Source of the DNA: an uncultured Thermoplasmatales archaeon | GTDB taxonomy: Archaea; Thermoplasmatota; E2; DHVEG-1 | Assembly (NCBI GenBank): GCA_964518165.1 | Contig: CAZFFN010000126.1 | Location: forward strand, 11,275-75,274 | Length of the DNA: 64,000 bases | Reading direction: 5' to 3' | Part shown: piece after piece, positions 9,115-30,971 of the stretch | Numbering within the stretch: position 1 is the first letter of the stretch | Layout: each line of letters opens with the position of its first letter | Made by a program: the position numbers and the translations under genes | The notes under the pieces: generated by a model | What the model saw: the letters and a program-made list of their open reading frames with translations, nothing else | What the model was told of the DNA's origin: nothing | Databases searched by the model: none

Positions 9115-12100
9115 TTATTTTTTACGACCCATAGCAACTAATACTAACAACAAAATAAAAATAATTACTATAATCGCTATTAACCAAATAGGTATTATTG
9201 GTTGGGGTTCTCTTTGGTTTGGATAATCTTTTGCACCAAATGGCATATGGCCATGTACTGAAAAATCTTCTTCTAAAATAGGTGATTCAACATCATCTAT
9301 TGTCCAATGGTTTTTTGATTCAGGATCCCATCTGCTCTCAGGTGCCCAAACACGTAAATCAGGATCACCAAAGAAAACAACGTTTTCATTTAAATCCCAC
9401 CACCATTGATCGACTAAGTACTGCATTCCAACTTCTGCCATACCTTGTTCATATGCTTCACCAATAGTATGGCCAAGAGCTATTTGACGCGGAATGGAAT
9501 GTAACCATATACCACTATACCATGATGTACTCCATGGGTCAAGTATCTGATAGCTAGTTCCATGCCTAATCATAACTTGATGTAAATATGTATATGCAAT
9601 AAGGCAAGAAACAGCATTAAAGCCCATGCTGTGAAGATTATCGAGATCCTCATCAAAATTAAGGCCGTTATATCCTGTTATTACATTTTCTCCACCGGCT
9701 AGAGGATCAATTACAACACCGTCTCCATATGCCCTGTAAGACCTTCCTATTATTGGTAAAAGACTCAGACCATTTGATTCCTTGATATGTAGATCAACTG
9801 GGAATGCATCAACTAGAAGTGATGGTTTAACCTGTGGATTCATTACTGCAACATCTGGATCTTCTGTGCTTCCTTTATCAACTGATATTAGATCAAGGGG
9901 TGTGCTTGCATAACTTGCTAATTTTAGTAAAAATGAAAAAGATGGTAGACCTGCTTTACTAAGCATATGTGGAAGGTGATTTAGAAATTCTTTGAATGTA
10001 CCTCTAGAAATTAAGGGACGTTCGTATGCTCTCCACGGATTTTCTTCATATACATAAGGGCTTTCGGGATCCCAGAAACTCAGAGTTCCGTAGTTACCAT
10101 TTCCTCCATGACAGCTTTCCATCCACATTATAGTTCCTTTATTAAGATTCTCAATTGCTTTTTCATATTGGGTTGAAAAAACGTTACTATAGCCTGCTTG
10201 TTGCCCATAAAACGGAGTGGCATATGTTTCATGAAGATCTGGGACATATGCTGCTGTTTTTCCTTCTACAGCACCCTGATCTATTGGATGCTTTGAAACT
10301 GTTTCATAGGGAATAATACCATTAGCTGTTGTGTATTTTCCACCCCAGTGTTTTTCTGCAGCTATCTCATTGAATTTATATAAATAAACATTATAGGTGT
10401 GTAACAATGGATATTTGTAGTTTTCTTCCATTTGTTCTTTTGTAATTACTAGATCAGTACCAATCGGATTCACAAGTTTACCCAATATTGGAACAACCTT
10501 ACTTGAACTTCCATTAACTAAATCAACTCCAGAAGGATCTAATGCAGGGTTTTCAAATATTAAAGCCGGATAGAAAACACTTCTTGATATCCAGTAACTG
10601 ATATCAACAGGTGTACTTGAAAATCTTCCTGGTATGAGTCTTCCTGTAAATGTTCTATCCCATGTTGAACCGATATCAAATTGATCAGCTACAGTAATCA
10701 TTGTAGAAAGGCCCTCTTTTGATTTTGAAAGATCATAATCATATGATTCAAGGAATTTTAATACATTTCTACCAGTCAAAACCATACTTGCAACTGACGG
10801 CAGATGAGGTCTAAATGATGCGTTTGCAGTATTTCTCCAAAATTCATTATGCCAGACAACCGCTTGAGATAGTTCAGGATGGTTATCAACTATTAAAACA
10901 GGTGCTCCATGATGAGCTGCTATAAAAGCTGCTGGTCCAAAAAAGTAAGCACCAGGATATTCACCAACGGGAACTGGATATAATGAATAATAATATGTCC
11001 ATGGATCAATTGTTGAAAAAACCACATCATCACTATTTGTATTTGATTTTATTTTATTGTATAATTCTAGGTAATCCGTGTATTCAGTAATTTTTGCAAT
11101 ATTTTTAATTTCATTTTTTACATCATTTTCTAAATAATTACCAACATTTAAAAGATGTATTTTTTTAACACCCAGTTTGTATAAGGCATCTTTTGTATCT
11201 TCCGGGATTTCATTGTTTTTAATATACAATAGAGGGGCATTTATATTACTAGCAAGAACTGCCCCATTTGTTGCAGAAGCTAGATTATCGCCTTTTTCTC
11301 TTGAAATATCTTTTTTCCACGAGTATTCTATTGTAAAATCAATTTCTTGATCCACATCTTCTAAAGCAAAAACACCTATCTTGTATCTTTCATCATCCTT
11401 TGTTTCACCAAGTTTTTCCAAATGTATCGTTCTCTCAGTAATCCCTTTTTCAACACCTTCTATAATTTCCTCATTAGAGGGCGTGGATGCTGTTTCTGCT
11501 CCAGTTGGATCAAGTACAAAGAAACCAAGTGGAACATTTGAGTTATCCCAATTTAAAGTGATTTCAACATCTCTACAGCCATAAGGAGTTGGATCTAAAA
11601 TTTCTTGTTCTATACCTGGGAATAAAGTAACTTCTACAGGTCGTGTATCACCTTTTTTAATTCCCATTTTTTTCAAAAGAGAATTGTCTTCTTCTACATT
11701 TTGATACATGCTTTCCATTTTTCCTTCTGGTGCTTTCTGAGTAGGCATATAAGTAACTCCTACCTCCCAGGTTCCATGGTTATAAACGTAAGAACTAGCT
11801 GTTTCTCCAGCCCCATAAAAAATATTCCATTTTGAATCTGCATCAGCCATACCAAGCTGGCTATCATATAATTGCAGATCAAGATCTATTGCAACGTTAT
11901 CCCAGAACATATGAGCAATAACATATTTGTAAGGCTCATTTATTTCAAAGGCTTTATAGCTCCCACCAACTCCAATTTCAGGGGTAGGAACATCTAAATT
12001 TATTGTATCTATTTTGTATCCCGATGGAATACTTCCTTTTAATTCTCCACTAAATGACTCTTTAGGTTTATCATATCCGTCTTTAACAATAGCAAGAACT

Positions 12101-12627
12101 GCTTCATCAGAATATGACCATTCTTTTTTAGCCAACTCACTTGATAGTTTGTAAGGATTAGAATAATCATAAGTATTGATTTTTTTTGCATCATATTTTT
12201 CTTCTAGTTCATTTTCAGCCATGCCAATTAAATTAAGTTCATCTAATTTTTCATCGCAATATCCCATCCAGTCATCCATAAAATATTCTACACCTTCTGA
12301 GGCATCTTGAATTTTATATTTGAGTTCATCTCCAAATTCATCTTTATCTTGATAGAAAATTAATGGATGAGAATATAGTTTATCATTATGATTAAAAACA
12401 GCAGTTGGAACACTTGCTAAATAAGCCAAATCATCAACAAGTTTTTCTTTGTTAAACTTAACTAAGCTTGTCTTTTTTAGAGGAACTACTTCTTCATAAG
12501 AAGCACCTTGTGTAAAGCCTTTTATATTTTCTAAATTTCCTGCATTTGCCATTGGTACAAAAATACTTGTTAAAAATATACATACAACTAATATTGATAT
12601 TAAATTTTTATCTATTTTCGCTTTCAT
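9115..12627 (-). CDS. Large secreted, C-terminally membrane-anchored surface protein (paralog B of 5531..8998)
   Basis: 1170 aa with the same architecture and motif set (YLASVPTAVF, GDNLASATNGAVLASNINAPLLY, GPAAFIAAHHGAPVLIVD, IMWMESCHGGNG, SMGFNAVSC, DPWSTSWY, WWWD, HGHMPFG). Signal peptide at the N-terminus, TM plus GRKK at the C-terminus, and a GGGGGT RBS. Confidence 0.8.
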   Translation of the reverse strand: MKAKIDKNLISILVVCIFLTSIFVPMANAGNLENIKGFTQGASYEEVVPLKKTSLVKFNKEKLVDDLAYLASVPTAVFNHNDKLYSHPLIFYQDKDEFGDELKYKIQDASEGVEYFMDDWMGYCDEKLDELNLIGMAENELEEKYDAKKINTYDYSNPYKLSSELAKKEWSYSDEAVLAIVKDGYDKPKESFSGELKGSIPSGYKIDTINLDVPTPEIGVGGSYKAFEINEPYKYVIAHMFWDNVAIDLDLQLYDSQLGMADADSKWNIFYGAGETASSYVYNHGTWEVGVTYMPTQKAPEGKMESMYQNVEEDNSLLKKMGIKKGDTRPVEVTLFPGIEQEILDPTPYGCRDVEITLNWDNSNVPLGFFVLDPTGAETASTPSNEEIIEGVEKGITERTIHLEKLGETKDDERYKIGVFALEDVDQEIDFTIEYSWKKDISREKGDNLASATNGAVLASNINAPLLYIKNNEIPEDTKDALYKLGVKKIHLLNVGNYLENDVKNEIKNIAKITEYTDYLELYNKIKSNTNSDDVVFSTIDPWTYYYSLYPVPVGEYPGAYFFGPAAFIAAHHGAPVLIVDNHPELSQAVVWHNEFWRNTANASFRPHLPSVASMVLTGRNVLKFLESYDYDLSKSKEGLSTMITVADQFDIGSTWDRTFTGRLIPGRFSSTPVDISYWISRSVFYPALIFENPALDPSGVDLVNGSSSKVVPILGKLVNPIGTDLVITKEQMEENYKYPLLHTYNVYLYKFNEIAAEKHWGGKYTTANGIIPYETVSKHPIDQGAVEGKTAAYVPDLHETYATPFYGQQAGYSNVFSTQYEKAIENLNKGTIMWMESCHGGNGNYGTLSFWDPESPYVYEENPWRAYERPLISRGTFKEFLNHLPHMLSKAGLPSFSFLLKLASYASTPLDLISVDKGSTEDPDVAVMNPQVKPSLLVDAFPVDLHIKESNGLSLLPIIGRSYRAYGDGVVIDPLAGGENVITGYNGLNFDEDLDNLHSMGFNAVSCLIAYTYLHQVMIRHGTSYQILDPWSTSWYSGIWLHSIPRQIALGHTIGEAYEQGMAEVGMQYLVDQWWWDLNENVVFFGDPDLRVWAPESRWDPESKNHWTIDDVESPILEEDFSVHGHMPFGAKDYPNQREPQPIIPIWLIAIIVIIFILLLVLVAMGRKK

Positions 12628-13901: not shown

Positions 13902-15926
13902 ATGATTAAAAATAATATTATGTTGTTTAAATCTATAAAAGCTAATCTTATCTTCTTTGTAATAATTTTATTGGTCATTCAATCATTATCAAGCTTTGCA
14001 ATCGGCATAAATACAAAAAATATACAGACCAAAGAAGAAAAAAGAAGTTCGTCATTAAAAAATAGTTTTATAATTGAGTTTAAGGATGAATCTATCTTAT
14101 CTTTTAGAGGAAAAATCAAAAATTTTTTATCAAATAGTAATATATTACAAGGAAATTTTTTAAAAGATAAAGTTGAACAATATAAATCAAAACTTGATTC
14201 AATGCATTTAAAGGCAAAGTTAGATATTCTTAATATCCTTGGATCAAGTTATACAATTAAAGATCTATTTACCCATGATTTTAAACTTTTTTCAAACTCT
14301 TTGGTAATAAAAAATATTCCAAATAATGTGATTGATTCTATAAAATCCTTAGATTATGTTAAAAATGTAAGAGTTCCAAAAAAAATAAAGATGCAATCTG
14401 ATCCTCTATCTTGGGGGGTAAGTAAGATAAATGCAGATCAAGTTTGGAACTTACATGATAATAAAGGTAGAAAAATAAATGGAGAAGGAATAAGTATCGC
14501 AATAATTGATACGGGTATTGATTATGATCACAGTCTATTAGGTGGAGGATTTGGACCAGGTTATACAGTTGTCGATGGAGATGATTTTGTTGAATATAAT
14601 AGATACGATGAAGAAAATGAAGTTTGGTATGAAAAGCTTCCAGAAGATGATCATGATCCAGATGACGAACAGGGACATGGTACACATTGTGCTGGAATAG
14701 CCTTAGGTGTTGCACCAGGTGCTTCACTTTATGCTTATCGTGTTCTAAATAAAGACGGCTGGGGAGATGAAAATTGGCTTCAAGAAGCTATAACTCGAGC
14801 AACTGATCCAAATGGGGATTTTGATATTTCAGATCATGTTGATATACTATCATTAAGTTTTGGAACAGTTAGCGAAGGAAAACCAGATGACAATATGAGC
14901 AAATGGGTCAATCAAGCGGTTGATTGCGGAGTAACAGTAGTTGCTGCAGCTGGAAATAATGGTTCTAATTATCATACAATTAGTTCACCAGGTTGTGCAG
15001 AAAAAGCAATAACTGTTGGAAATTCTAATTCTTATGATAGGGTAGATCCTAGTAGTTCAAGAGGCCCAACTTTGAATGGAAAAACTAAACCAGATCTAGT
15101 AGCACCCGGTATGCATATAGAAAGCACATGGTTAAATAACGGGTTTAAAACATTGTCAGGAACAAGTATGTCTACTCCTCATGTTGCTGGAGCTACTGCA
15201 CTTCTTTTGCAGTTGCATCCTGACTTTTCTCCAAATGATGTTAAAGAAACTCTAAAACAAAATGCTGTTAAATTATTTGCCCCAAATGGATCGATTTATG
15301 ATGAGTTTACTCAAGGCGCTGGAAGAATTGATATACTTAAATCAGTTAATCTATCAGAAGCACCACCAATTGCTGAATTAGAAATTTCAGAATATGTAAA
15401 AAAAGGTATAATAAATATAAATGGTACTGCTATGAATGGAACTGGAAATTCAAGTGATTTTACTAATTTTAGTTTGTACTATAAATACGATGAAGATTGG
15501 ATAGAACTATGTACAAAAACTCAAGAGATTGATGATTCATTAATGTATGAATGGGACACAACACATTTTGAAAAAGGTCTTTACAAACTGAAATTATTTG
15601 TAAGAAGTAAAGATCAGGCTAGTGTAGATATTAAAGAGATAAATATTGATTATGATGGTTTAATTATTGAGTGTAATGAAAGTTTCTTTGAAGATGAGGA
15701 GATTAAAGTAGATATTTTTAATGTAAATATGGAACCAGTAGATTGTTTTGTATTTTTTATTCCAAAGTTTCATCTCCCTCAAATTAGATACGGAAGTACA
15801 GTTCAATTTAGGGGACCAACCTTATATAATCCATTAAAACAGAATATTACTGGTAAAATTTTTGCAATTAAATTACTAAAATTTGAAACAAAAGGTAAAG
15901 AGATAGAGATAAAAAATATTGTTTAA
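13902..15926 (+). CDS. Secreted subtilisin-like serine protease (S8) with N-terminal propeptide and C-terminal extension
   Basis: Signal peptide, then IAIIDTGIDYDH (Asp), HGTHCAGIA (His), GTSMSTPHVAGATALL (Ser) and a catalytic Asn region. Confidence 0.9.
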   Translation: MIKNNIMLFKSIKANLIFFVIILLVIQSLSSFAIGINTKNIQTKEEKRSSSLKNSFIIEFKDESILSFRGKIKNFLSNSNILQGNFLKDKVEQYKSKLDSMHLKAKLDILNILGSSYTIKDLFTHDFKLFSNSLVIKNIPNNVIDSIKSLDYVKNVRVPKKIKMQSDPLSWGVSKINADQVWNLHDNKGRKINGEGISIAIIDTGIDYDHSLLGGGFGPGYTVVDGDDFVEYNRYDEENEVWYEKLPEDDHDPDDEQGHGTHCAGIALGVAPGASLYAYRVLNKDGWGDENWLQEAITRATDPNGDFDISDHVDILSLSFGTVSEGKPDDNMSKWVNQAVDCGVTVVAAAGNNGSNYHTISSPGCAEKAITVGNSNSYDRVDPSSSRGPTLNGKTKPDLVAPGMHIESTWLNNGFKTLSGTSMSTPHVAGATALLLQLHPDFSPNDVKETLKQNAVKLFAPNGSIYDEFTQGAGRIDILKSVNLSEAPPIAELEISEYVKKGIININGTAMNGTGNSSDFTNFSLYYKYDEDWIELCTKTQEIDDSLMYEWDTTHFEKGLYKLKLFVRSKDQASVDIKEINIDYDGLIIECNESFFEDEEIKVDIFNVNMEPVDCFVFFIPKFHLPQIRYGSTVQFRGPTLYNPLKQNITGKIFAIKLLKFETKGKEIEIKNIV

Positions 15927-18682: not shown

Positions 18683-19276
18683 TTATTTTACAGATTCATA
18701 TTTATGAGTGACATGTGAAAAAGATTCAGATCCTCCTTCACAGGAAACTGTCCAACCACAAAGTTCAACTTTTTCATCAATTACATCACCGGAATCATCA
18801 TAAGTATATACTGTTTTTAAATTAATTCTAGTTTTAATTTTTAGACTTCCTTTTAAAACAAGTTTTTCATCTTCAAAAATCAGTATATCTACCTGGTATG
18901 CATCATCAGATAACATTAATGGTATTTCAATTTCTTTTGTTGAATCTGCATTTATTTTTCCAACTAACACAGTATTTTTACAGTCAGCTACTTTATTACT
19001 TTCTTTTACAACATAGGCAACTATCTTTATTTTACCTGACTCTTTACTCCATATATTTGTAAGATAAGGCGTACAAGTTATATTTATTGTTGTGTTAGTT
19101 TCTTCAGTTTTCAATAAATATATTTCTTCAACAAATAGATGTTTTTCAGGTAATTGGGGTTCTGCTTCAACTGGTTTTTCAAATAGTATAGTAAATGCTC
19201 CAAATATTGCAATTAATGCTACTGCGATTGTTACTAGAAAGATACTAGCTTTTTTGAATTTTTTACTTACATTCAT
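18683..19276 (-). CDS. N-terminally membrane-anchored or secreted hypothetical protein
   Basis: A signal/anchor (IFLVTIAVALIAIFGAFTILF) is followed by a beta-rich extracellular region with 4 Cys. Confidence 0.5.
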   Translation of the reverse strand: MNVSKKFKKASIFLVTIAVALIAIFGAFTILFEKPVEAEPQLPEKHLFVEEIYLLKTEETNTTINITCTPYLTNIWSKESGKIKIVAYVVKESNKVADCKNTVLVGKINADSTKEIEIPLMLSDDAYQVDILIFEDEKLVLKGSLKIKTRINLKTVYTYDDSGDVIDEKVELCGWTVSCEGGSESFSHVTHKYESVK

Positions 19277-19393
19277 GTTTTCACCAAGTTATTGTTTGAC
19301 ATTGACAATATATAAACACTCAGAAATTGTTTGGTAAAAGCCAAACAAAAGCAAACAATATATAAATATACAATAACATAATTATTTAGTGAA

Positions 19394-20170
19394 ATGACAA
19401 AAGTAACCCTTGATATGAGCAGTTTCAAAGCACTTGCTTCAGATACAAGATTAAATATTTTAAAGTCCTTAGATGGAAAAAAGATGAATCTAAAGGACAT
19501 ATCTAAAGAAACTGAACTAAACAAGGCAACTCTCCATGAACATCTAAATAAACTATCTGAAGCCGGGCTTGTAAAAAGAATTGAAAGAAAAGGCCATAAA
19601 TGGGTTTATTACAAACTTACCTGGAAAGGAGAAGGGCTACTTCATCCAGAAAACACTAGAATTGTAGTGCTTTTTTCTTTAACTTTTGTTGCTCTTGCAG
19701 CAGGAATAGTTCAATTTATTAGATATCTGACTGTGAAAGTTTCTAATACAATTCCAAGGAATCTTAATGACGTTGGTTATGGAATTAGAGAAGGAACTGA
19801 TACTCTATTTAAAAGTGCAAATGTAACTGATTCAAATAACGCCATATATATAGCAACCGATAGTGTTAATGAATCATTACCTGGAACAGTGGATTTATTT
19901 CTTTCTAGGGGATTTGCTAATTCAAACCAATCAATACTACCTTTTATAAAAGATAAAATCCCTTATAATTGGAATTTAACTACAAATCATACTGTTAATA
20001 CAACCACACCAAAAATAGATACTGGAGCAAATTTAGCTGCAGAACAAACAACTAATTTTACAAGCGATCCATTGTTGCTATATATTGCAATAGGATGTTT
20101 CATTCTATTTGCATCTATCTTATGCATTTCAATTTGGAGATACAAAAAGAACAAAACTCCAAAACTCTAA
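19394..20170 (+). CDS. Membrane-embedded ArsR/SmtB-type winged-helix transcription regulator (HTH-TM-extracellular NxS/T-rich region-TM)
   Basis: The N-terminal FKALASDTRLNILKSLDGKKMNLKDISKETELNKATLHEHLNKLSEAGLV is an ArsR-family HTH. A TM helix follows, then an approximately 120-aa N/T/S-rich segment with many N-x-S/T sequons, a C-terminal TM and a KKNK tail. Confidence 0.65.
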   Translation: MTKVTLDMSSFKALASDTRLNILKSLDGKKMNLKDISKETELNKATLHEHLNKLSEAGLVKRIERKGHKWVYYKLTWKGEGLLHPENTRIVVLFSLTFVALAAGIVQFIRYLTVKVSNTIPRNLNDVGYGIREGTDTLFKSANVTDSNNAIYIATDSVNESLPGTVDLFLSRGFANSNQSILPFIKDKIPYNWNLTTNHTVNTTTPKIDTGANLAAEQTTNFTSDPLLLYIAIGCFILFASILCISIWRYKKNKTPKL

Positions 20171-20454
20171 TGCCTCCCGTAAATATTCTATATAATACTT
20201 ACTTTCTGATTAATTTGGTTTTAATACTTTTTCTAAATCTTCTTCTTCAATAAAATCAAATAATGTTTTTTGCATCCGCATCACCAACTACATGTATATA
20301 ATAAGTATTTAAAAATGTTTTTCCATAATTTTTAGGAAAATCAGTATTTTATAAAATTATCAAATATTTTTTATTTTTGATATTTTTATATTCCAAAATA
20401 TTAAAATATATATATTTTGATTACAAATTATAATGTGGAGTTGGGGGAATAAAC

Positions 20455-22146
20455 GTGAGACATAAATTTTTTGATGTAAAAAAAGGTGTTTTTTTTGTAG
20501 TGAGTATATTGTTTTTGATGAATATTTTTATGCCGGTTACAAATAGCATAAAATTAAATTCAAGTTCAAATAATAAAGATTTTTCAATAATTATTCACAA
20601 AATATTTCAAGATGATGAAATTGATCCCTTTCCCCATTTAGAAGGCGGAGATTGGAAACTATCTATATATGTAAATGATGAAAAAAGAACTTTAGAATGC
20701 TCAGGGAAAGAAGTAATACTTGATAAAATACTTGTTTGGGAAGATATCATTCAAGAGAATATGAAATTTTTAGAGATAAGATTTGAACTTTTAGATTTAG
20801 ATTCTGGTGTTTGGCCTGATGAACATGATATTGCAGATATTAGCGCATATGCTGATGAAAACTATTATGATGGCAAATATGATGATACAGAAGATTTTGA
20901 AAATAATAGACCTGCTGTTTTTAAAAGATATTACAATCTTGTAAGCGAGAAATGGGAGGAAGTAGACAATAATAATGATTACTTACAAGAGGTGCAAGAA
21001 TCATATTTAACATGGTTTCTTACTAGTGGTAATTTTGATGGGAGTACTACAACAGATGAAAACGATGTTTCAATTTGGTTTGATATATCAATTGGGAACT
21101 CTGCTCCATTTCCACCAGAAACACCATCGGGGCCTACCTCTGGATGGGTAGATCAGATTTATTTGTACACTACAAAAACCAATGATCCAGATAATGATAA
21201 AATAAAATATGGATGGGATTGGGATGGAGATGATGAAATTGATCAAATAACTGATTTTTTTGACCCTTGGGAATCTGCTGATGTTTATCATGGATGGTCC
21301 ACTGGTAAAATCAACTATGTTAAAGTCTGTGCAATAGATGAAAAAGGTGCGGTAAGTGAATGGTCCAATGAATTAAAGGTAGAAATTAATGGACCATATG
21401 GCAAAAGTGGATTTGAACTTGAAGAATGGTCATTAGGAGAAATATATTGTGTATATCTTGATCATTATGAAACAACTGAACTATTAGATATATTAAGAGG
21501 CGGTGGAAATATTGTTACTGCCGCTGCAGGGTTGATTTCGGCTATTGCAACTGCTGCCGGGGTTCCACTAGACATAAGCATTTCTATTGCAATAGTAACT
21601 GGAATTTTGAGGCTTGGAGTTGAAGTTATCAACCTTATGGATAGAGGTATGGGTATTTATGTAAAAACGTATATTGTAATGCTTGAAGGTGTTCCACTTT
21701 CATATTTTTCAGTAATGTGGTCTCAGTCTTTAGGGGATGATGCGTGGAGTATACCTGATGGGAATCAAGCTCCAAATACACCTAATAAACCCATTGGCGA
21801 AATAAAATGTAAAAAGGGTAAATCGTATACTTTTACTAGTGTTTCTGATGATCCAAATGATGATAAAATTGCTTATGTTTTCGAATGGGGCGATGGAACC
21901 TATAGTTGTGTTGATTATAATAATTCAGGTGAATCAGTTAGTCAAAAACATAATTGGTCTGAAATAGGAGAATATAATATTCGAGTGAAAGCAATTGATA
22001 TTTATGGTTATGAAAGCAAGTGGTCTGAACCATTAAACATTGAAATTAATAAAAAGAGTAAGATCAAATTCTTTTTGAAATTAGAAAATTTTTATGAGGT
22101 ATTTAAAAATGTTTTTGGAAAAGAAATTTGTAGAGAGGTGATATAA
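20455..22146 (+). CDS. Secreted protein with two PKD-like modules (GTG start)
   Basis: GTG start with GGGGG 7 nt upstream. Signal peptide, two approximately 90-aa modules (DPDNDKIKYGWDWDGD...; DPNDDKIAYVFEWGDG...HNWSEIGEYNIRVKAIDIYGYESKWSEP), and an internal Gly/Ala-rich hydrophobic stretch. Confidence 0.7.
   Translation: MRHKFFDVKKGVFFVVSILFLMNIFMPVTNSIKLNSSSNNKDFSIIIHKIFQDDEIDPFPHLEGGDWKLSIYVNDEKRTLECSGKEVILDKILVWEDIIQENMKFLEIRFELLDLDSGVWPDEHDIADISAYADENYYDGKYDDTEDFENNRPAVFKRYYNLVSEKWEEVDNNNDYLQEVQESYLTWFLTSGNFDGSTTTDENDVSIWFDISIGNSAPFPPETPSGPTSGWVDQIYLYTTKTNDPDNDKIKYGWDWDGDDEIDQITDFFDPWESADVYHGWSTGKINYVKVCAIDEKGAVSEWSNELKVEINGPYGKSGFELEEWSLGEIYCVYLDHYETTELLDILRGGGNIVTAAAGLISAIATAAGVPLDISISIAIVTGILRLGVEVINLMDRGMGIYVKTYIVMLEGVPLSYFSVMWSQSLGDDAWSIPDGNQAPNTPNKPIGEIKCKKGKSYTFTSVSDDPNDDKIAYVFEWGDGTYSCVDYNNSGESVSQKHNWSEIGEYNIRVKAIDIYGYESKWSEPLNIEINKKSKIKFFLKLENFYEVFKNVFGKEICREVI
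21112..21390 (+). repeat. PKD-like protein module copy 1 (in gene 20455..22146)
   Basis: Protein-level repeat DP-x-x-D-x-I-x-Y-x-[WF]-[DE]-W-[GND]-D... ...V-[KR]-[VA]-[KC]-A-x-D-x-x-G-x-x-S-x-W-S. Confidence 0.6.
21766..22047 (+). repeat. PKD-like protein module copy 2 (in gene 20455..22146)
   Basis: Same motif set: YVFEWGDGTY ... NIRVKAIDIYGYESKWSEPLNI. Confidence 0.6.
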
Positions 22147-22176
22147 ATTAAAAAAAATTTTTTAATCATATTTTTA

Positions 22177-23721
22177 ATGATTTTTTGTTTGGTTGGGAGT
22201 ATATATGCTGGTGCAATAAAAATAGATAAAGAAAATAATGAAATTCTAAATAAAACAATTAATGCTAATTCTTCCTGGACTTTAATGATTTATTTGGATG
22301 GTGATAATAATCTTGAAAGCAGTGCAATAGATGATTTTTTAGAAATGTCTGCTGTAGGATCTACTGAAAATGTTAATATTGTAGTCCAGTTTGATAGGGT
22401 TGATGGGTATGATTACTCGTTTGGGGATTGGACTAGTTGTAAAAGATTCCATATTTTAAAAGATATGGTTCCAACTCCAGAAAATGCTATAATGGATATC
22501 GGGGAAGCAAATATGGGTGACCCTCAAGAACTTATAGATTTTGCAACCTGGTCAATGAGTAATTTTCCAGCTGAAAAATATTGTTTAATTCTTTGGGATC
22601 ATGGATCAGGTTGGAAACTATCTAATAAAAATGGGAGAAAAGATATTTGTGAAGATATTACTAATTATGATGTTCTAAAATTATATGAGTTAAAAAATGC
22701 TCTATCAGAGATTACATCTGATTCTTCATTTAAGATTGACTTACTAGGCTTTGATGCTTGTTTGATGGGTGAAATTGAAGTTGCTTACGAATTAAAAAAT
22801 TTTTGTAATTTCTTTACTGCTTCAGAAAATACAGAGCCTGCAGACGGATGGAATTATGAAGATTCTTTAGCTGATTTAATTGATAATTATGAAAACACAG
22901 ATGGTGAAAAACTTGGCGAATATTTTGTAACACATTATGAAGGGTATCAGATTACATTATCAACAATAGATGTTTCAAATTTGAATGCGTTAACAGATGC
23001 TATCAGTAATCTTGCTTCAGCTTTATCTTCTTCAGAATATATAGATAAAGTTCTAAATGTTTTTAGTAATGTTGAAAAATATATGGAATCTTGTGATATA
23101 TATCATTTTGCTCAGTTGATATCTGAAAATATTTATGATTATGCAATTCAACAATATTCTGAGGAGGTAAAAAATGAAATCGAATACACGGTTACTTCTG
23201 AAAAACATGATAGTTATAATGAAAATTCACATGGGCTTTCGATATATTTACCTGATTGTACATATGATCACGAATATGATAGTTTGGATTTTTCAACTAA
23301 TGGTTTGTGGGATGATTTTTTAATCTATATTTTTGAAGGTGCTACTTCAAGTAATCCACCAACTATACCCATTATAAATGGCATAAGTGAAGGAGAAGCA
23401 GGTACGACACATCGTTATACTTTTCAGTCATCTGATCCAGAAGGAGATGATATATATTATGTAATTGACTGGAATGATGGATCTCAACATGAAATAATTG
23501 GTCCAAAAGCAACAGGTGTTGAGATAGAAGCATATCATGTTTGGTATGACCAAGGAGGATATGTTTTACGAGCTAAAGCAGTTGATTCAAATGGAGCTGC
23601 TAGTTCATGGAGTACCTTTAATATAATGATGCCCAGGATAAAAAATAGTTTCAGAGATAGTTTGAAATTACCTTTCTTAAGAAATATATTTGAGATTTTT
23701 AATATTGGAGAGGATTTTTAA
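22177..23721 (+). CDS. Clostripain-family (C11, clan CD) cysteine peptidase with a C-terminal PKD-like module
   Basis: WTLMIYLDGDNNLE N-terminal motif, LILWDHGSGW (His-Gly) and LLGFDACLMG (Asp-Ala-Cys). The C-terminal module is DPEGDDIYYVIDWNDGS...YVLRAKAVDSNGAASSWS. Confidence 0.8.
   Translation: MIFCLVGSIYAGAIKIDKENNEILNKTINANSSWTLMIYLDGDNNLESSAIDDFLEMSAVGSTENVNIVVQFDRVDGYDYSFGDWTSCKRFHILKDMVPTPENAIMDIGEANMGDPQELIDFATWSMSNFPAEKYCLILWDHGSGWKLSNKNGRKDICEDITNYDVLKLYELKNALSEITSDSSFKIDLLGFDACLMGEIEVAYELKNFCNFFTASENTEPADGWNYEDSLADLIDNYENTDGEKLGEYFVTHYEGYQITLSTIDVSNLNALTDAISNLASALSSSEYIDKVLNVFSNVEKYMESCDIYHFAQLISENIYDYAIQQYSEEVKNEIEYTVTSEKHDSYNENSHGLSIYLPDCTYDHEYDSLDFSTNGLWDDFLIYIFEGATSSNPPTIPIINGISEGEAGTTHRYTFQSSDPEGDDIYYVIDWNDGSQHEIIGPKATGVEIEAYHVWYDQGGYVLRAKAVDSNGAASSWSTFNIMMPRIKNSFRDSLKLPFLRNIFEIFNIGEDF
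23350..23634 (+). repeat. PKD-like protein module (in C11 peptidase gene)
   Basis: YYVIDWNDGSQ ... YVLRAKAVDSNGAASSWSTFNI. Confidence 0.6.
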
Positions 23722-23723
23722 AA

Positions 23724-25865
23724 ATGTTAAAAAATAAATTTATTAGTTTATCAATTATTTTTTTATTTATTTTTTCTAGTTTTGCGGGTGCCATTTGTAT
23801 TAGTAACAAAAGCAATATAAAAAAAGAAAATGAAAGATATACTTCTCTTTCTAAAGGAATTGGCGGTTGGCACTCTGAAGAAAGTCTTCAGGTTGATGGT
23901 AAAAATTTTGAAGATGTCGAAAAGATTGGTGGTAATGGAGGCGGTTGGGAAAGCCCTTATGAAACAAATTCTATTAGAATATGGGCAGAGGAAAATCGTG
24001 TTAGAGCAAAATATCTTTTTGATATTGATGAAGGGCCAGTTAAATATTTAAAATATGATATTTTGTATAAAGATGTAGGATGGTTTTCAGATGGCCCTGA
24101 TGCATTAGTTTATAACTGGGATGATACTTGGGGTTCCTATTCAAATATTGGTGGAGCTGGTGAAGATAATGATAATTATGAATGGGAAACTCATACCTTT
24201 ACAACTAATTCAGATAAATATGTAAATAGTAAAGGAGAAATACTTGTTGGAGCACAAGCATATGATGATTCTTCAGTTTTTCACCAAGATGATTTAGCTA
24301 TAAAGATAATGAAAATTTCCTATAAAGCTGCAGATGAAGAAATTTTTAATGTTGAATATCAACCATATGATTCAAATGATGATGGTGCAAAAGATAGCAT
24401 TAAAGCTAAAATTGATGCGGATGTTGGAAATGATGGAGATGGAACTTCAGTTAATGTTAAAGCTATTTGTTATCTAAAAGATCCCTCCGGTAACATTATT
24501 GATTCAAATCAAAAAACATGGTTAATAACCGATCATCAAGTTGAATATGGAATAATTAATACAAGTTCGCTTGGCGGAAATAATGGAATGTATAGTTTAG
24601 AAATCAAGTTAATTGATGAATATGGAAATTTAGAAGATGAAACTTCTAAATCTATTTATCTTGTCCCCGATCCAAAAAGAACTGTTGATTTTTATGTATC
24701 ACCTATTGAAGGTGGGTCGATACTTCTTGAGCAAAGTACATACTATGATAATGAGTCAACGCTTCTATCAAATAAAGAATATGATATTTCAGCTTTATCA
24801 GAAGAATATTACGCGTTTGACAAATGGGAATGTACTGGTGGCGTTTCAGTTGAACATTACAATTCTAAAGATACAAAAATGACTGTAAACAATAATGGGA
24901 GTATAAAAGCAGTTTTTACATTTGAATTTAATACATTATACTTTTTTGTTCAACCAGACTTTTCAGGATATATTAAAGTTGAAGATAATGATTTTACTAA
25001 TAATTCAGGATGCTATATTGATTCTGGAAAATATTCTCTAGAAGCTGTATCAACTGATGATTCATACTATTTTTCCGAGTGGTATGTTGAAGGAGATATC
25101 AGTGTTGAAGATGAATATATTTCTCAAACAGTATTAGATGTGTTTGGTGATGGAATACTCTTAGCAATTTTCAATGAAAATAATCCGCCTAATAAACCAG
25201 AACTTCCTGACGGGGCTCTTTCCGGGGCAATATATGAAAGTTATTCTTATTCAACTAAAACAACTGACTCTAATAAAGATCAAATATATTATTTATTTGA
25301 CTGGAATGATGGCACAGATAGTGGCTGGCTTGGACCTTATGAATCCGATGAAAAATGTACTGCAGCTCATAGTTGGGGAGGGTCTAGAACGTATCAAGTG
25401 AGAGTAAAGGCTAAGGATAGTCATGGTTCAGAAAGTGAATGGTCTGATCCTATTTCGGTTGGAATTTTCAGCCCTCCTTCTTCTCCAAAAATAAAGGGTC
25501 CAACACATGGAGAAATCAAAAAAGAATATGATTTTACGTTTAGTTCTACGGATCCAGATAGCGATGATGTATATTTCTATATAGAATGGGGGGATAATAA
25601 CATTGAAGATTGGGTGGGCCCCTACAATTCTGGCGAAGAGGTAACAATATCACATTCATTTAGAAGAAAAGGCACTTTTACAATAAAAGCACTTGCAAAA
25701 GATGAAAACGAGGTTGTAAGCCAATCATGGGGGATGCTAGTTATTGATTGTCCAAAAACAAAAAAATATAATTTTAATTTTCTGGATTTTTTAATAGAAA
25801 AATCTATATTCATAAGATTGGTTGAAAAAATACAATTCCTATCTTTGTTTGATTTTTTAAATTGA
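23724..25865 (+). CDS. Secreted protein with Ig-like/InlB-B-like repeats and two C-terminal PKD-like modules
   Basis: Signal peptide MLKNKFISLSIIFLFIFSSFAGA. Modules are DSNKDQIYYLFDWNDGT...YQVRVKAKDSHGSESEWSDP and DPDSDDVYFYIEWGDNN...FTIKALAKDENEVVSQSW. It starts 3 nt after the upstream gene. Confidence 0.7.
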   Translation: MLKNKFISLSIIFLFIFSSFAGAICISNKSNIKKENERYTSLSKGIGGWHSEESLQVDGKNFEDVEKIGGNGGGWESPYETNSIRIWAEENRVRAKYLFDIDEGPVKYLKYDILYKDVGWFSDGPDALVYNWDDTWGSYSNIGGAGEDNDNYEWETHTFTTNSDKYVNSKGEILVGAQAYDDSSVFHQDDLAIKIMKISYKAADEEIFNVEYQPYDSNDDGAKDSIKAKIDADVGNDGDGTSVNVKAICYLKDPSGNIIDSNQKTWLITDHQVEYGIINTSSLGGNNGMYSLEIKLIDEYGNLEDETSKSIYLVPDPKRTVDFYVSPIEGGSILLEQSTYYDNESTLLSNKEYDISALSEEYYAFDKWECTGGVSVEHYNSKDTKMTVNNNGSIKAVFTFEFNTLYFFVQPDFSGYIKVEDNDFTNNSGCYIDSGKYSLEAVSTDDSYYFSEWYVEGDISVEDEYISQTVLDVFGDGILLAIFNENNPPNKPELPDGALSGAIYESYSYSTKTTDSNKDQIYYLFDWNDGTDSGWLGPYESDEKCTAAHSWGGSRTYQVRVKAKDSHGSESEWSDPISVGIFSPPSSPKIKGPTHGEIKKEYDFTFSSTDPDSDDVYFYIEWGDNNIEDWVGPYNSGEEVTISHSFRRKGTFTIKALAKDENEVVSQSWGMLVIDCPKTKKYNFNFLDFLIEKSIFIRLVEKIQFLSLFDFLN
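25179..25465 (+). repeat. PKD-like protein module copy 1 (in gene 23724..25865)
   Basis: YYLFDWNDGT ... YQVRVKAKDSHGSESEWSDPISV. Confidence 0.6.
25469..25750 (+). repeat. PKD-like protein module copy 2 (in gene 23724..25865)
   Basis: YFYIEWGDNN ... FTIKALAKDENEVVSQSWGML. Confidence 0.55.
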
Positions 25866-25988
25866 ACAAAAACAACCTAATTTTTTTATTTTTTTACTAT
25901 TTTTTCATGTAAATCCTACAAAAACCTAATAATATACCAAAAAACTTTTATAACAAGAAAAAAATATTATAGATTCAAAGTAATTTAT

Positions 25989-26003
25989 ATTGTGAGATTA
26001 TGA
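25989..26003 (+). promoter_or_regulatory. ATTGTGAGA-TTATGA motif upstream of TFB copy 1 (shared with the TFB copy 2 start region)
   Basis: The same ATTGTGAGA ... GATTATGA spans the ATG of TFB copy 2 (30020..30040). Here it initiates a 14-codon uORF (26000..26044) encoding MINKNYFNNIQTVT, similar to the TFB2 N-terminus [11 protein letters not shown]. Confidence 0.45.
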
Positions 26004-26101
26004 TTAATAAAAATTATTTCAATAATATTCAGACAGTGACCTAGAAGATATAATTTGAAATAAAGTTTTTTTGGTTATAAAATATAATATGAGGGTTAAA
26101 G

Positions 26102-27037
26102 TTGAATAAAAAAGACAAACAGAAAATCGAATATAAAACAAAGTGTCCTGAATGCGGCAGTATAAACCTTGCAAAAAATTATAGTAGGGGTGAAATTGTT
26201 TGTGAAGATTGCGGTCTTGTGGTAACCGAAGACTTAGCAGATCATGGTCCAGAGTGGCGTGCTTTTGATAGTGAACAACATAAAAAGAAAGCAAGAGCAG
26301 GACCACCAATGAAATATACCATACATGATAAAGGATTAAGCACAGCTATAAGCTGGAAAAATAGAGATGCATATGGTAGATCAATCCCTACAAAAAACAG
26401 AGGGCAAATTTACAGACTTAGAAAATGGCAGAGAAGGACAAGAATAAGTAGCGCATCTGAAAGAAGTCTTGCTGAGGCTTTTTCTGTTCTAAGTAGAATT
26501 TCATCTAGAATGAATCTACCTAGAAGCATTAGAGAAAGAGCAGGAATGCTTTACAGGCAAGCAGCTAAAAAGAACTTAATTAGGGGTAGAAGTGTAGAAA
26601 TCGTAGTTGTAGCAACAATATATGCGGCCTGTAGGCTAGCAGGTATGCCAAGAACACTTGACGAGATTAGTAGTATAACCAGCATTTCTAGAAGAGATAT
26701 TGGTAGAACATATAGATTTGTAGTCAGAGAACTCAAGCTTAAAATGGCTGTTCCTTCACCACTTGATTATATTACTAGATTTATAGGGGATTTAAATCTC
26801 AGCCAGAAAGTAAAAAAGAAATCCGTAGATATTTTAAATCTAGCTATCGAAAAAGAATTAACTAGTGGTAGAGGCCCGGTTGGTGTTGCAGCTGCATCGA
26901 TATATATTGCTTCAGTTATATCTGGTGAAAGAAGAACTCAAAAAGAAATATCTGATGTAGCAAGAGTTACAGAAGTTACAATAAGAAACAGATACAAGGA
27001 ATTAGCTAGAAAACTGGACATACGAATGGAAATCTAA
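26102..27037 (+). CDS. tfb: Transcription initiation factor IIB (TFB), copy 1, TTG start
   Basis: 311 aa with a Zn ribbon (CPECGS...CEDCG), B-finger/linker and two cyclin folds. No in-frame ATG precedes the Zn ribbon. The TTG start makes its N-terminal length equal to TFB copy 2, and GAGGG lies 6 nt upstream. Confidence 0.85.
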
Positions 27038-27948: not shown

Positions 27949-29475
27949 ATGAGAAAAAACTTCAAATTAAAAATTTTTATTTATATCGTTTTTTCTATAC
28001 TTTTTCTGGGTTTAATCAATATTTCATCAGCTCAACCCTATGTTGGTGAGGATGATAGATATCTAAAAGAAGTGGAAATGAATACTGAAGAAACTTTTTA
28101 TTGGACAGTATATAAAAATTCATCCATTGATTATTCTGTAAATGTAGAGGTGAATGGATTAAGAGATTGGGCTACAAATATTGCTCCTTCTAATTTTGTA
28201 TTGTCTTCAGAAAACACCTATGAGGTTGTAACTCTTAATTTTAAAATACCTAAGTATCCCGATGTTGAAAATCTAAAAGGCAGTATAAGTTTTATATATC
28301 GACCTCTCAATAGTTCTGATAAAACTACTATTGAAAAAGATTTTAGTATAAATATCGTTGGAATTTATGACGGGAGAGAAAACACAATTTTCGGTGGTTT
28401 TACAAATCCACTACCCGCTCCTTTAAACAATTCTTATGGTGCTTTACTTATCAATATATTTATTTGGATAATAATTTCACTTGTTATTTACTTTATAATA
28501 AAATATATATTGCTTGGTCTTGCAAAAAAAACCAAAACAGAGTTTGATGATGCAGTTATTGAAATTGTTAGAAAACCGATTTTTCTGATTATATTTTTAT
28601 ATGGGCTTATTGTCTCAATAATTCGATTTGGAATAAATATTGGGTACCAGGCTTCGTTATTTCAAATATATTTTTTGATTGTTGTAATATTTGGAATTTA
28701 TATCTTTTATAGGGTATTTAATGAAGTTTTAGATGAGATAACAAAGAAAAAAGGTGGTAAAGATAGTACATTTGCTACAACCTTAAAGCCGGTATTAAAC
28801 AAAGTTGGAGTTGTCATAATTGTTATTGGAGGTCTAATATTTGGTTTAAGTGCTGTGGGAATCGAAGTTACAGCGCTTCTGGCTGGTGCAGGTGTGATGG
28901 GTCTTGTTCTTGCTTTTGCCGCCCAAGACACTCTTTCAAATTATTTCAGCGGAATTCACCTACTTCTAGATAGACCTTTTAAAATTGGAGACATAATTTT
29001 ACTTGATAGCGGGGAATATTGTAAAGTACTTAATATTGGTATGAGATCTACTAAATTATATAGTCTATTTGAACATGAATCGATTGTTTTACCTAACAAC
29101 ACAGTTGCAAATCAAAAAATTGTAAATATCGTTCAGCCGGACACAAAAATTAGAAAAAAAGTGGAGGTTAGCGTTGCATATGGTTCTGATCTTAAAAAAG
29201 TTTATAAGATTCTAGAAGAAGTAACAAAAAGCCATCCTGATGTTATAGTAAAAAAAGGATTTGATGTATTTGTTAGGTTCACTGAATTTGGGGACTCTGG
29301 ACTTAAGTTCATGGTTATCTTTTGGGTTGAAGATGTAATGAACCAATGGAGAGCTATGAGTGAAATAAGAACAGGGATTGATAAAAGGTTCAGAGAGGAA
29401 GGAGTCACTGTTCCGTTCCCTCAAAGAACTGTATGGATAAAAAAACCTAAAAAAGAAGATAACAAAGAAAAATAA
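27949..29475 (+). CDS. MscS-family mechanosensitive channel with N-terminal extracellular domain
   Basis: Signal peptide, TM helices, and the MscS pore/beta-domain signature LSNYFSGIHLLLDRPFKIGDII...VLPNNTVANQKIVN. Confidence 0.8.
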   Translation: MRKNFKLKIFIYIVFSILFLGLINISSAQPYVGEDDRYLKEVEMNTEETFYWTVYKNSSIDYSVNVEVNGLRDWATNIAPSNFVLSSENTYEVVTLNFKIPKYPDVENLKGSISFIYRPLNSSDKTTIEKDFSINIVGIYDGRENTIFGGFTNPLPAPLNNSYGALLINIFIWIIISLVIYFIIKYILLGLAKKTKTEFDDAVIEIVRKPIFLIIFLYGLIVSIIRFGINIGYQASLFQIYFLIVVIFGIYIFYRVFNEVLDEITKKKGGKDSTFATTLKPVLNKVGVVIIVIGGLIFGLSAVGIEVTALLAGAGVMGLVLAFAAQDTLSNYFSGIHLLLDRPFKIGDIILLDSGEYCKVLNIGMRSTKLYSLFEHESIVLPNNTVANQKIVNIVQPDTKIRKKVEVSVAYGSDLKKVYKILEEVTKSHPDVIVKKGFDVFVRFTEFGDSGLKFMVIFWVEDVMNQWRAMSEIRTGIDKRFREEGVTVPFPQRTVWIKKPKKEDNKEK

Positions 29476-30035: not shown

Positions 30036-30971
30036 ATGAAAAATAAAGAAATAAATTCAATAGAGGAAATAATTGAATGCCCTGAATGTAAAAGCGAAAA
30101 ACTTACAAAAGATTACAACAGAGCAGAAATTGTCTGTAACAGATGTGGCCTTGTTATAGACGAAAACTTAATAGATTACGGTCCAGAGTGGCGTGCTTTT
30201 GATAGCGAACAAAAACAAAAAAGAGCAAGAACAGGAATGCCAATGACACCATTAATGCATGATAAAGGACTTACAACCACAATAGATTGGAAAAATAGAG
30301 ACTTTTATGGAAGATCAATACCAAACAGAAATAGATCTAGAGTATATAGGCTAAGAAAATGGCAGAGAAGGCTTAGAACAAGCCAATACCAAGAACGAAA
30401 CCTAATGGAAGCACTAAGAAACCTTGATAGAATGTCTTCTTCCCTTGCACTTCCAAGATCGGTAAGGGAAAACTCAGCAATGATTTATAGAAAAGCAATG
30501 GATAAAAACCTAATTAGAGGTAGAAGCATAGATGGAGTAGTTGCTGCAACGATATATGCAGCATGTAGACAATGTAATGTTCCAAGAACACTTGATGAAA
30601 TAAGCCAAAAAACAGGGATAAAAAGAAAAGAAATTGGTAGAAACTATAGACATATAAATAAATCATTAAAACTAAACCTCAGACCAACTAAACCAAAACA
30701 ATACTTAACACGATTCTGTAACGATCTTGACTTAAGTTCAAAAACTAGAGCAAAAGCCGACAATATCCTAAAAAAAGCTACAAATAAAGAACTTGTAAGT
30801 GGCAGAGGACCAATAGGACTTGCTGCTGCATCATTATACATGGCATCTGTTTTATCAGGTGAAAAAAGAACCCAGAAAGAAATCGCAGAAACATCAGGTG
30901 TTACAGAAGTTACAATTAGAAATAGATACAAAGAACTAGCTGATAGATTAAGCATTAAAATTGCAGTATAA
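30036..30971 (+). CDS. tfb: Transcription initiation factor IIB (TFB), copy 2
   Basis: 311 aa, collinear with copy 1 (CPECKS...CNRCG Zn ribbon, GPEWRAFD, cyclin repeats). Confidence 0.9.

Follow-up and report, generated by a model that had tools for sequence, protein, structure and literature searches.

Within a 64,000-nucleotide stretch of DNA from an uncultured Thermoplasmatales archaeon (contig CAZFFN010000126.1; the whole stretch is called the window hereafter), we investigated a gene whose product combines an ArsR-type winged helix-turn-helix (wHTH) domain with two transmembrane (TM) helices. On one side it is flanked by a divergent gene for a signal-anchored protein and on the other by three co-oriented genes for secreted proteins with PKD and C11 peptidase domains. 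A perfect palindrome is located directly in front of the core promoter of this regulator gene, and the architecture of the protein, the palindrome and the position of the latter relative to the promoter are all conserved across orthologous loci. The features of the locus are listed in Table 1.

Architecture and conservation of the transmembrane regulator

Residues 14-62 of the regulator match the Pfam models HTH_5 (ArsR, PF01022) with 46.3 bits (cut-off 22) and HTH_20 with 39.8 bits (cut-off 27), and the NCBIfam model NF033788 for an ArsR/SmtB subfamily gives 50.9 bits, slightly below its cut-off of 55. Matches in phmmer searches include the archaeal ArsR homologue PH1932 and HlyU. In an AlphaFold2 (AF2) model calculated from an alignment of 120 homologues, the domain displays the succession α1-α2-α3-αR-β-β-α5 of the ArsR/SmtB fold with predicted local distance difference test (pLDDT) values of 91-96, the helices comprising residues 8-14, 17-25, 33-40 and 44-56, followed by a β-hairpin (60-75) and a final helix (77-83). 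The recognition helix reads N43-K44-ATLHEHL. When the model was compared with the PDB using Foldseek, the best matches were NolR, HlyU, SrnR, CzrA and SmtB, with a target-normalised TM-score of about 0.7 for NolR, HlyU, CzrA and SmtB, and further matches included SqrR and the pNOB8 centromere-binding protein 4rs8. Helix α5 consists of about seven residues only and is separated from TM1 by about five residues in the AF2 model; an invariant LLHPENT closes the wHTH domain immediately before TM1. Residues 1-88 are devoid of cysteine, and α3 has no CXC motif.

Outside the wHTH, the AF2 model comprises a long helix (residues 85-119), an unstructured stretch (residues 128-214; pLDDT <50) and a helix at 226-252, and the Kyte-Doolittle hydropathy maxima are found at residues 90-108 and 227-245. 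Pfam, hydropathy and AF2 therefore all confirm the order of ArsR-type winged helix, TM helix, N/S/T-rich loop, second TM helix and basic tail that had been read from the letters alone in the original prediction. The tail YKKNKTPKL has four lysines in nine residues and, together with R249, provides five basic residues past TM2. In the 120 homologues, the 15 residues following TM2 contain 3.84 K+R on average, as compared to 0.27 before TM2. From this bias of positive charges towards the C-terminal side of TM2, the positive-inside rule predicts that the HTH and both termini are inside and the loop is outside, which is the topology that had been proposed. No signal peptide precedes the 88-residue N-terminal domain. 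A search for C-terminal sorting signals (PGF-CTERM and similar) gave no match to a curated model, all NCBIfam matches at E ≤ 0.01 being HTH families. Together, these features support a one-component-type transmembrane regulator whose ArsR-type wHTH is cytoplasmic and whose two TM helices form a hairpin with an exposed loop.

A word-indexed search with the regulator yielded 995 homologues. All of the best 120 have exactly two hydrophobic segments and the same wHTH-TM-loop-TM-tail layout, with loops of 45-159 residues. In family alignments of 21 and of 120 sequences, the wHTH, the LLHPENT junction, TM1, the (Q)DP motif, TM2 with its C235 and the tail W-R-x-x-K-N-K-T-P-K-L vary little or not at all; the 37 columns that are invariant over 120 sequences are concentrated in the HTH, TM1 and the tail, and the loop is not alignable in either case. 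When compared with the closest relative (locus L001), the ratio of nonsynonymous to synonymous substitution rates (dN/dS) is 0.017 for the HTH plus TM1, 0.05 for TM2 plus tail and 0.51 for the loop. These sequence comparisons indicate relaxed constraint on the loop and strong purifying selection on the TM helices and the tail.

The loop of the window's protein (114 residues, 36% N+S+T) contains seven N-x-S/T sequons, as compared to 3.25 ± 1.5 in shuffles of the same loop (P = 0.02), and the regulator has the highest sequon density among the open reading frames (ORFs) of the window (3.1 per 100 residues; mean 0.58). The sequon-dense segment noticed originally is therefore real. An eighth sequon, N253-K-T, is unlikely to be a glycosylation site because it is part of the conserved cytoplasmic tail, in which N253 does not vary within the family. 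In the loops, sequons abound only among the nearest, equally AT-rich relatives; many homologues have 0-2 of them, and sequon richness was rejected as a family trait. The suggestion that the extracellular loop is a sensor domain is not supported, since its length varies, it is predicted to be disordered and its sequons are limited to close relatives; with no alignment, a dN/dS of 0.51 and a pLDDT below 50, a folded or conserved loop domain was rejected.

In a profile search of the full library, 1320 cluster representatives were obtained at E ≤ 1e-10, of which about 25 match end to end; many others share just the wHTH plus TM1 module, which is combined with different extracytoplasmic parts (CARDB domains or long low-complexity regions, for instance). 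Scanning one genome per species led to 80 orthologous loci (911,476 nt in all), which form the basis of the counts given below. All 80 come from metagenome-assembled genomes (MAGs) of uncultured Thermoplasmatota, and they include SG8-52-3, SM1-50 and 3300003432D, which are genomes of Thermoprofundales/MBG-D, a group of worldwide abundance (PMC6461988). The JGI contig MLSed_10000051 (95 kb) is a match to the window itself. The window gene is a conserved member of a large uncharacterised family of transmembrane regulators that is widespread in sediment Thermoplasmatota, including Thermoprofundales MAGs.

A conserved palindrome at a fixed position in the regulator promoter

The core of the palindrome in the window, GTTTGG-N6-CCAAAC, occupies positions 19329-19346 with its centre at 19337.5, i.e., 56.5 nt upstream of the regulator ATG. 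The family consensus is GTTYGG-N6-CCRAAC, located directly upstream of the TFB recognition element (BRE) and TATA box of the regulator gene. An exact core is present at 60 of the 80 loci, its centre always being 45-75 nt before the regulator start codon, and no other copy was found in the 911,476 nt; at 13 further loci a core with one mismatch occupies the equivalent position. In an unbiased MAFFT alignment of 78 upstream regions, the information content is close to 0 upstream of the position corresponding to 19327 and amounts to 1-2 bits per column over 19329-19368. As 14 of 100 shuffles of the window also contain the core with at most one mismatch, the single match in the window would be unremarkable if taken alone, and it is the conservation across loci that provides the evidence for an operator. 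The palindrome accompanies the regulator gene with any upstream neighbour, be it pyrE, a DUF7490-like gene or another one, and so belongs to the regulator gene. When the window was scanned with a position weight matrix (PWM), the palindrome (25.6 bits) was the sole strong site and the runner-up (10.6 bits) was located inside an ORF at 31971. In the region 20171-20454 in front of the PKD/C11 genes, which the original prediction had named for DNA-binding assays, no match of at least 8 bits was obtained. Also, a PWM scan of ±8 kb across the 80 loci revealed no other convincing site, only two marginal matches.

The TATA box in the upstream regions of the loci is found about 30 nt before the regulator ATG, and the regulator mRNA is probably nearly leaderless if the transcription start site is placed at the usual archaeal distance from the TATA box. 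In the window, the centre of the palindrome is 26 bp from this TATA box and about 25 bp from a TATA-like element on the minus strand, so that the two are arranged at mirror spacing. The minus-strand element belongs to the divergent gene, which starts at 19276, 62 nt from the palindrome centre; the match of its product to Pfam DUF7490 is weak (24.6 bits versus a cut-off of 27). At all loci with an additional gene between pyrE and the regulator gene, a TATA box is again followed by 12-13 nt and the palindrome, the inserted partners being DUF7490-like genes (divergent neighbours at about 10 loci), members of two vWA families and a serpin gene, all encoding products with signal peptides or anchors. 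The same tatataaa-N12/13-palindrome layout is also present at paralogue loci. The divergent start codon is 52-78 nt from the palindrome centre at about 29 loci; pyrE itself is found at this distance in about 17 loci and at 84-116 nt in about 22 others. The palindrome often lies midway between two divergent TATA boxes, and the DUF7490-like gene is a probable co-regulated partner in the window. At loci L007, L009, L012, L017, L023, L026 and others, a strongly conserved promoter motif of pyrE itself (GATTTATAATTTTACAT on the strand of the regulator gene) is present, which abuts the palindrome in some genomes and is about 35 nt further off in others. A scan for bacterial sigma-70 promoters and intrinsic terminators was uninformative for an archaeon and was discarded.

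The recognition helix begins with positions 43-44, which are N-K in all 120 aligned homologues and variable in distant paralogues. Orthologues with N43-K44 have a GTTYGG-type palindrome, exact or with one mismatch, at 73 of the 80 loci, and at L083 the distant, CARDB-bearing paralogue P0184, which also has N-K, is preceded by GTTTGG-N6-CCAAAC. Other paralogues combine different residues with different half-sites: T-E with CTTAGG-N6-CCTAAG (P0160, L084), H-E with CTCAGG-N6-CCTAAG (P0147, L089) and S-E with ATTAGG-N6-CCTAAT (P0155, L092). Three of the four paralogues with E44 thus display an altered palindrome, whose position with respect to the AAAAAC...TATA module is unchanged. If dimers of the family bind to the palindromes, just this pattern would be expected, in which both half-sites change symmetrically and the end of the helix that reads the DNA changes with them. 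L084 (CAZVNH010000286.1) and the orthologue locus L024 (CAZVNH010000034.1) are from one assembly, with a CTTAGG operator in the former and a GTTCGG-type operator in the latter, and this occurrence of the T-E and N-K types in one assembly suggests insulated paralogous circuits.

Table 1. Positions of the features at the regulator locus within the window.
Feature	Position	Strand	Basis or reading
Divergent gene for a signal-anchored DUF7490-like protein, 197 aa	18683-19276	-	Weak Pfam match; probable co-regulated partner
TATA-like element of the divergent gene (TTTATATATT on minus strand)	19307-19317	-	Sequence; layout recurs at other loci
Perfect 22-bp palindrome TTGTTTGG-TAAAAG-CCAAACAA (whole: TTGTTTGGTAAAAGCCAAACAA)	19327-19348		Predicted operator
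Core promoter of the regulator gene: AAAA(A)CAAAC-AG/AT, then TATA box (TATATAAATA, 19359-19368)	19349-19368	+	1-2 bits per column over 78 loci; sequence read
Regulator gene, 258 aa plus stop	19394-20170	+	ORF with ATG start; Pfam HTH_5 and HTH_20; 995 homologues
Cytoplasmic wHTH, aa 1-88	19394-19657	+	AF2, Foldseek, 37 invariant columns, dN/dS
TM1, aa 89-111, N-in/C-out	19658-19726	+	Hydropathy; model helix 85-119; family conservation
Extracellular loop, aa 112-225, N/S/T-rich, hypervariable, predicted disordered	19727-20068	+	Sequons, pLDDT, dN/dS
(Q)DP motif, TM2 (aa 226-249, conserved C235) and basic cytoplasmic tail W-R-Y-K-K-N-K-T-P-K-L	20069-20167	+	Alignments, positive-inside count, dN/dS
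Segment (5.6 kb) with genes for PKD, C11-PKD and PKD secreted proteins (20455-25865)	20327-25918	+	Absent from closest relatives (blastn)

Neighbouring genes and candidate targets

Downstream of the regulator gene, gaps of 284, 30 and 2 nt precede and separate the three PKD/C11 genes; the latter two values had been given correctly in the original prediction and the first one had been given as 285 nt. All three products have hydrophobic N-termini. When the two closest relatives for which enough sequence is available (L001 and L029) were compared with the window by blastn, colinearity stopped at about 20321-20326 and restarted at about 25919-26052, and because it breaks and resumes around the block, the three genes are placed within a 5.6-kb indel. 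In both relatives the gene for TFB directly follows the regulator gene. The contig of L002 ends soon after the regulator gene and aligns just to 20330, which corresponds to the same left junction. This junction is situated 157 nt past the regulator stop codon, and the 157 nt, which contain T-tracts, are common to relatives without the PKD/C11 cluster at 72-82% identity. Using tblastn with the PKD/C11 proteins, only partial PKD-domain matches were obtained at 11-12 of the 80 loci; PKD-type matches downstream of the regulator gene occur at 4 of them, 2-6 kb off and never adjacent, and the three genes are singletons when the neighbours of all loci are clustered. A conserved pairing of regulator and PKD/C11 cluster, as it had been envisaged, is therefore not found, and a lack of conserved synteny is what the original prediction had itself named as refuting it; the PKD/C11 genes would rather be unrelated passengers outside the conserved unit of the regulator, and for annotation this means that adjacency to them should not be taken as a regulatory unit.

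On the upstream side, tblastn with the neighbours in the window detected a divergent pyrE in 61 and purD in 59 of the 80 loci, and neighbour clustering gave the conserved order GPN-loop GTPase < purD < pyrE < | regulator >. Past the regulator gene, the neighbours differ between loci and comprise a convergent rpoN-S9-L13-L18e block, a small membrane protein plus receiver domain, an MscS-like channel or TFB. TFB was rejected as a partner, being found only in the window and two close relatives, and so was the MscS channel, which is present at 10 of the 80 loci. Two TFB (TFIIB) paralogues lie within 5 kb of each other in the window (26102-27037 and 30036-30971), the first being the regulator-adjacent TFB of L001 and L029. 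An MscS-type mechanosensitive channel is encoded at 27949-29475, a few genes downstream of the regulator gene, and a shorter MscS-like gene is immediately downstream of and co-directional with the regulator gene at about eight loci (L016, L024, L037, L038, L048, L066, L067, L076).

The window region 20171-20326 contains a minus-strand ORF (MQKTLFDFIEEEDLEKVLKPN) at 20210-20287, and L004 and L029 have a convergent ORF of 109 residues (cluster c57) at this position; judging by position, the window ORF may be a remnant or the N-terminus of a small conserved gene. At L028 and L065, a gene of about 392 codons, named tyrosine-recombinase-like from reading its sequence (cluster c64), is located between pyrE and the regulator gene, and the intergenic region beside the regulator looks like a recurrent insertion site. 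Two adjacent large minus-strand ORFs at 5531-8998 and 9115-12627 (1155 and 1170 residues) have hydrophobic N-termini and no Pfam matches; they may encode paralogous surface proteins. Genes of the window related to peptide scavenging encode a secreted S8 peptidase (13902-15926), a C11 (clostripain-type) peptidase (22177-23721) and an OPT oligopeptide transporter (32178-34223). A peptide-scavenging repertoire of peptidases and oligopeptide transport has been described for Thermoprofundales/MBG-D.

When a metagenome collection was scanned with the commonest exact 18-mer of the palindrome, 74 sites were found, 27 of them before a regulator gene and 47 elsewhere. Most of the latter are parts of longer terminator-like hairpins on unrelated, higher-GC contigs. 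On four low-GC contigs, the exact 18-mer with the same flank architecture is situated 65-85 nt upstream of genes for secreted proteins, namely DUF4139 proteins (two contigs), a beta-propeller (PF09826) and a TSP3/transglutaminase-like protein. These sites hint at a candidate regulon of surface or secreted proteins. The DUF4139 genes at L111 (2710-4281) and L162 (1600-3183) are homologous, are located on independent low-GC contigs and have the palindrome about 70 nt upstream; the regulator gene is not adjacent to them.

Proposed mode of action and comparison with known systems

We consider it rather probable that the protein is a membrane-anchored autoregulator of a bidirectional promoter that acts through the palindrome. 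In this protein, the ArsR/SmtB-fold wHTH is fused via a kink of about five residues (LLHPENT) to the two-helix membrane hairpin, and the outer loop is a fast-evolving, probably disordered spacer that is probably N-glycosylated in the lineage of the window. A homodimer, anchored by two TM hairpins, would bind to GTTYGG-N6-CCRAAC about 26 bp upstream of the TATA box, at about -52 from the likely start site, and would control its own promoter as well as the divergent gene wherever a second TATA box is present at mirror distance; in the window, the divergent target would be the DUF7490-like gene. With low certainty, we regard positive control as more likely, because sites just upstream of BRE/TATA are typical of archaeal activators, as exemplified by ArnR boxes and EarA sites (PMC6396743); repression by blocking the BRE is the alternative. 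Since strong conservation is found in the TM helices and the tail but not in the unconstrained loop, a signal is more likely to enter in or at the membrane or via a partner that binds the tail than via the loop.

Several observations weigh against this proposal. With one site in 64 kb, a regulon could not be defined for the window, and another factor could bind to the palindrome. The co-variation of recognition helix and half-sites stems from few, possibly related paralogues, i.e., from a small and phylogenetically non-independent sample, and the half-sites are degenerate in front of P0153 (H-E, L086) and P0154 (H-K, L091). Of the 47 sites of the 18-mer that lack an adjacent regulator gene, 40 are not archaeal promoter candidates, and the four contigs with extra sites could not be assigned to genomes encoding the regulator, so that they represent possible extra targets only. 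Also, the very short α5-TM1 tether of the model might hinder DNA binding at the membrane.

The view expressed in the original prediction, that a glycosylated loop senses envelope or extracellular status and the regulator controls the downstream PKD/C11 genes, could draw on the co-orientation and closeness of these genes, on the exposed loop and on the association of the family operator with secreted-protein genes at other loci. Yet the block is an indel without counterpart in the closest relatives, its genes are singletons with 4 partial domain matches at a distance, the region in front of it is devoid of PWM matches and begins with T-tract-containing sequence shared by relatives that lack the cluster, the family operator is single in the 64 kb and stands before the regulator gene, and the loop is not conserved, all of which makes this view very improbable. 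What survives of the supposed link to secreted proteins is the recurrence of the operator before genes for such proteins, including the DUF7490-like ones. That the protein is an ordinary ArsR/SmtB sensor of metals or thiols with an added membrane anchor seems scarcely credible. Its best family matches are indeed ArsR/SmtB models and its fold matches CzrA, SmtB and SqrR; however, the lack of cysteines in residues 1-88, including any CXC in α3, and the truncation of α5, in which a DxHx10HxxE site would be impossible, make this reading unlikely, and no conserved metal-resistance gene is found nearby.

We regard it as unlikely, although less so, that the protein is a latent membrane-tethered factor resembling SREBP or ATF6, in which an extracellular protease would cut the loop at a first site, an intramembrane cut of TM1 would follow and the freed wHTH would act on the palindrome. 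The hairpin topology (N-terminal DNA-binding domain inside, type II TM1, exposed loop, TM2) is that of SREBP, a loop of at least 45 residues is always present yet unconstrained, the tether is very short with an invariant HPENT at the cytoplasmic edge of TM1, and secreted peptidases are numerous in the host lineage (with an S8 and a C11 enzyme in the window; PMC6461988). Against it stand the lack of a syntenic protease gene in the neighbour clustering of the 80 loci, the purely hypothetical nature of cleavage here, the strong conservation of TM2 and tail, which would be superfluous for a simple bait, and the fact that ArnR, ToxR and CadC function in the membrane without release. A structural role, with the protein tethering the locus or a few sites to the membrane in the manner of an ArsR-like centromere-binding protein involved in segregation or organisation, would fit one site of apparently very high affinity beside its own gene and none elsewhere in the 64 kb, the resemblance of the fold to, among others, 4rs8 and the conserved position in a housekeeping neighbourhood. 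But the site is locked at a fixed distance to BRE/TATA, often between two promoters, as in the layout of a transcriptional operator, and no partition ATPase was found nearby in the window or in the neighbour clustering; this role therefore appears improbable. As an extension with a small chance of being correct, one may envisage a lineage-wide switch for a 'surface programme' of protein-degrading sediment archaea, in which the hairpin loop would serve as protease bait or envelope-state reporter, the wHTH, released or activated by cleavage or a membrane signal, would act on bidirectional promoters of secreted proteins (DUF7490-like, vWA, serpin, DUF4139, beta-propeller) and K or E at residue 44 would select GTTYGG or xTTAGG, thereby insulating paralogues within one genome.

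Compared with known systems, the membrane-anchored autoregulator proposed here shares features with several types of regulators. To our knowledge, almost no archaeal transmembrane transcription regulator (TTR) has a known DNA site or target, ArnR being the main exception. TTRs are common in archaea, at about four per genome (PMC10269533). Binding of DNA by a membrane-resident regulator has an archaeal precedent in ArnR (PMC6396743), and such regulators are widespread (PMC10269533). Demey et al. (2023; PMC10269533) define a TTR operationally by a DNA-binding domain and one or more TM segments, and on these terms the regulator of the window is a TTR. ArnR and ArnR1 of Sulfolobus acidocaldarius are membrane-bound one-component activators of archaellum and pilus genes (PMC6396743). 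Like ArnR, the window regulator is archaeal, has an N-terminal cytoplasmic HTH and two TM helices, would act from the membrane and is associated with an inverted repeat upstream of the core promoter (TCGAC-N5-GTCGA for ArnR, GTTYGG-N6-CCRAAC here). However, a cytoplasmic HAMP-like and sensor region separates the HTH of ArnR from its C-terminal TM pair, whereas the HTH of the window regulator runs into TM1, its TM pair encloses a long exposed loop and it has no cytoplasmic sensor domain. Beyond the HTH class, no sequence relationship to ArnR was seen, though none was searched for. A Pfam scan of the regulator gave no HAMP match, and because it lacks a HAMP or sensor region, it is not of the ArnR type.

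With ToxR, TcpP and CadC, the window regulator shares an N-terminal cytoplasmic DNA-binding domain and an extracytoplasmic part. ToxR and CadC have an OmpR-type wHTH (Trans_reg_C), a single TM segment and a folded periplasmic sensor, in contrast to the ArsR-type wHTH, TM hairpin, disordered loop and conserved 10-residue cytoplasmic tail of the window regulator. Trans_reg_C is absent among its 22 Pfam matches at E ≤ 0.01, and since neither an OmpR-type wHTH nor a folded outer domain is present, it is not of the ToxR/CadC type. Soluble ArsR/SmtB proteins (HlyU, NolR, SrnR, CzrA, SmtB and archaeal PH1932) have the same fold and belong to the same Pfam family. ArsR/SmtB proteins bind as dimers to inverted repeats and usually control their own genes; for the window regulator, a palindromic operator at its own promoter is predicted, with two half-sites spaced by roughly one helical turn, which would suit a dimer. 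Unlike them, the window regulator has no metal or thiol ligands, is anchored in the membrane and has a truncated α5 that continues into the membrane helix; its sequence indicates that it is not a metalloregulator. The eukaryotic SREBP and ATF6 resemble it in the order of inner DNA-binding domain, TM1, exposed loop, TM2 and cytoplasmic C-terminal end, but there is no homology and the C-terminal part of the window regulator is 10 residues long and not a regulatory domain. Finally, the regulator and its distant paralogues show weak to borderline matches to Pfam DUF7347, HVO_A0261_N and HVO_A0114, haloarchaeal wHTH families of unknown function for which a literature search found no publication; the paralogues P0160 and P0184 pass the cut-off of DUF7347 and the window regulator remains below the cut-offs. 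As its predicted operator is testable, its bidirectional promoter is defined and a residue pair is available as a candidate determinant of specificity, the family offers a tractable entry to archaeal regulation from the membrane. Whereas the class of transmembrane regulators was already known, the conserved palindrome at the regulator's own promoter is new here.

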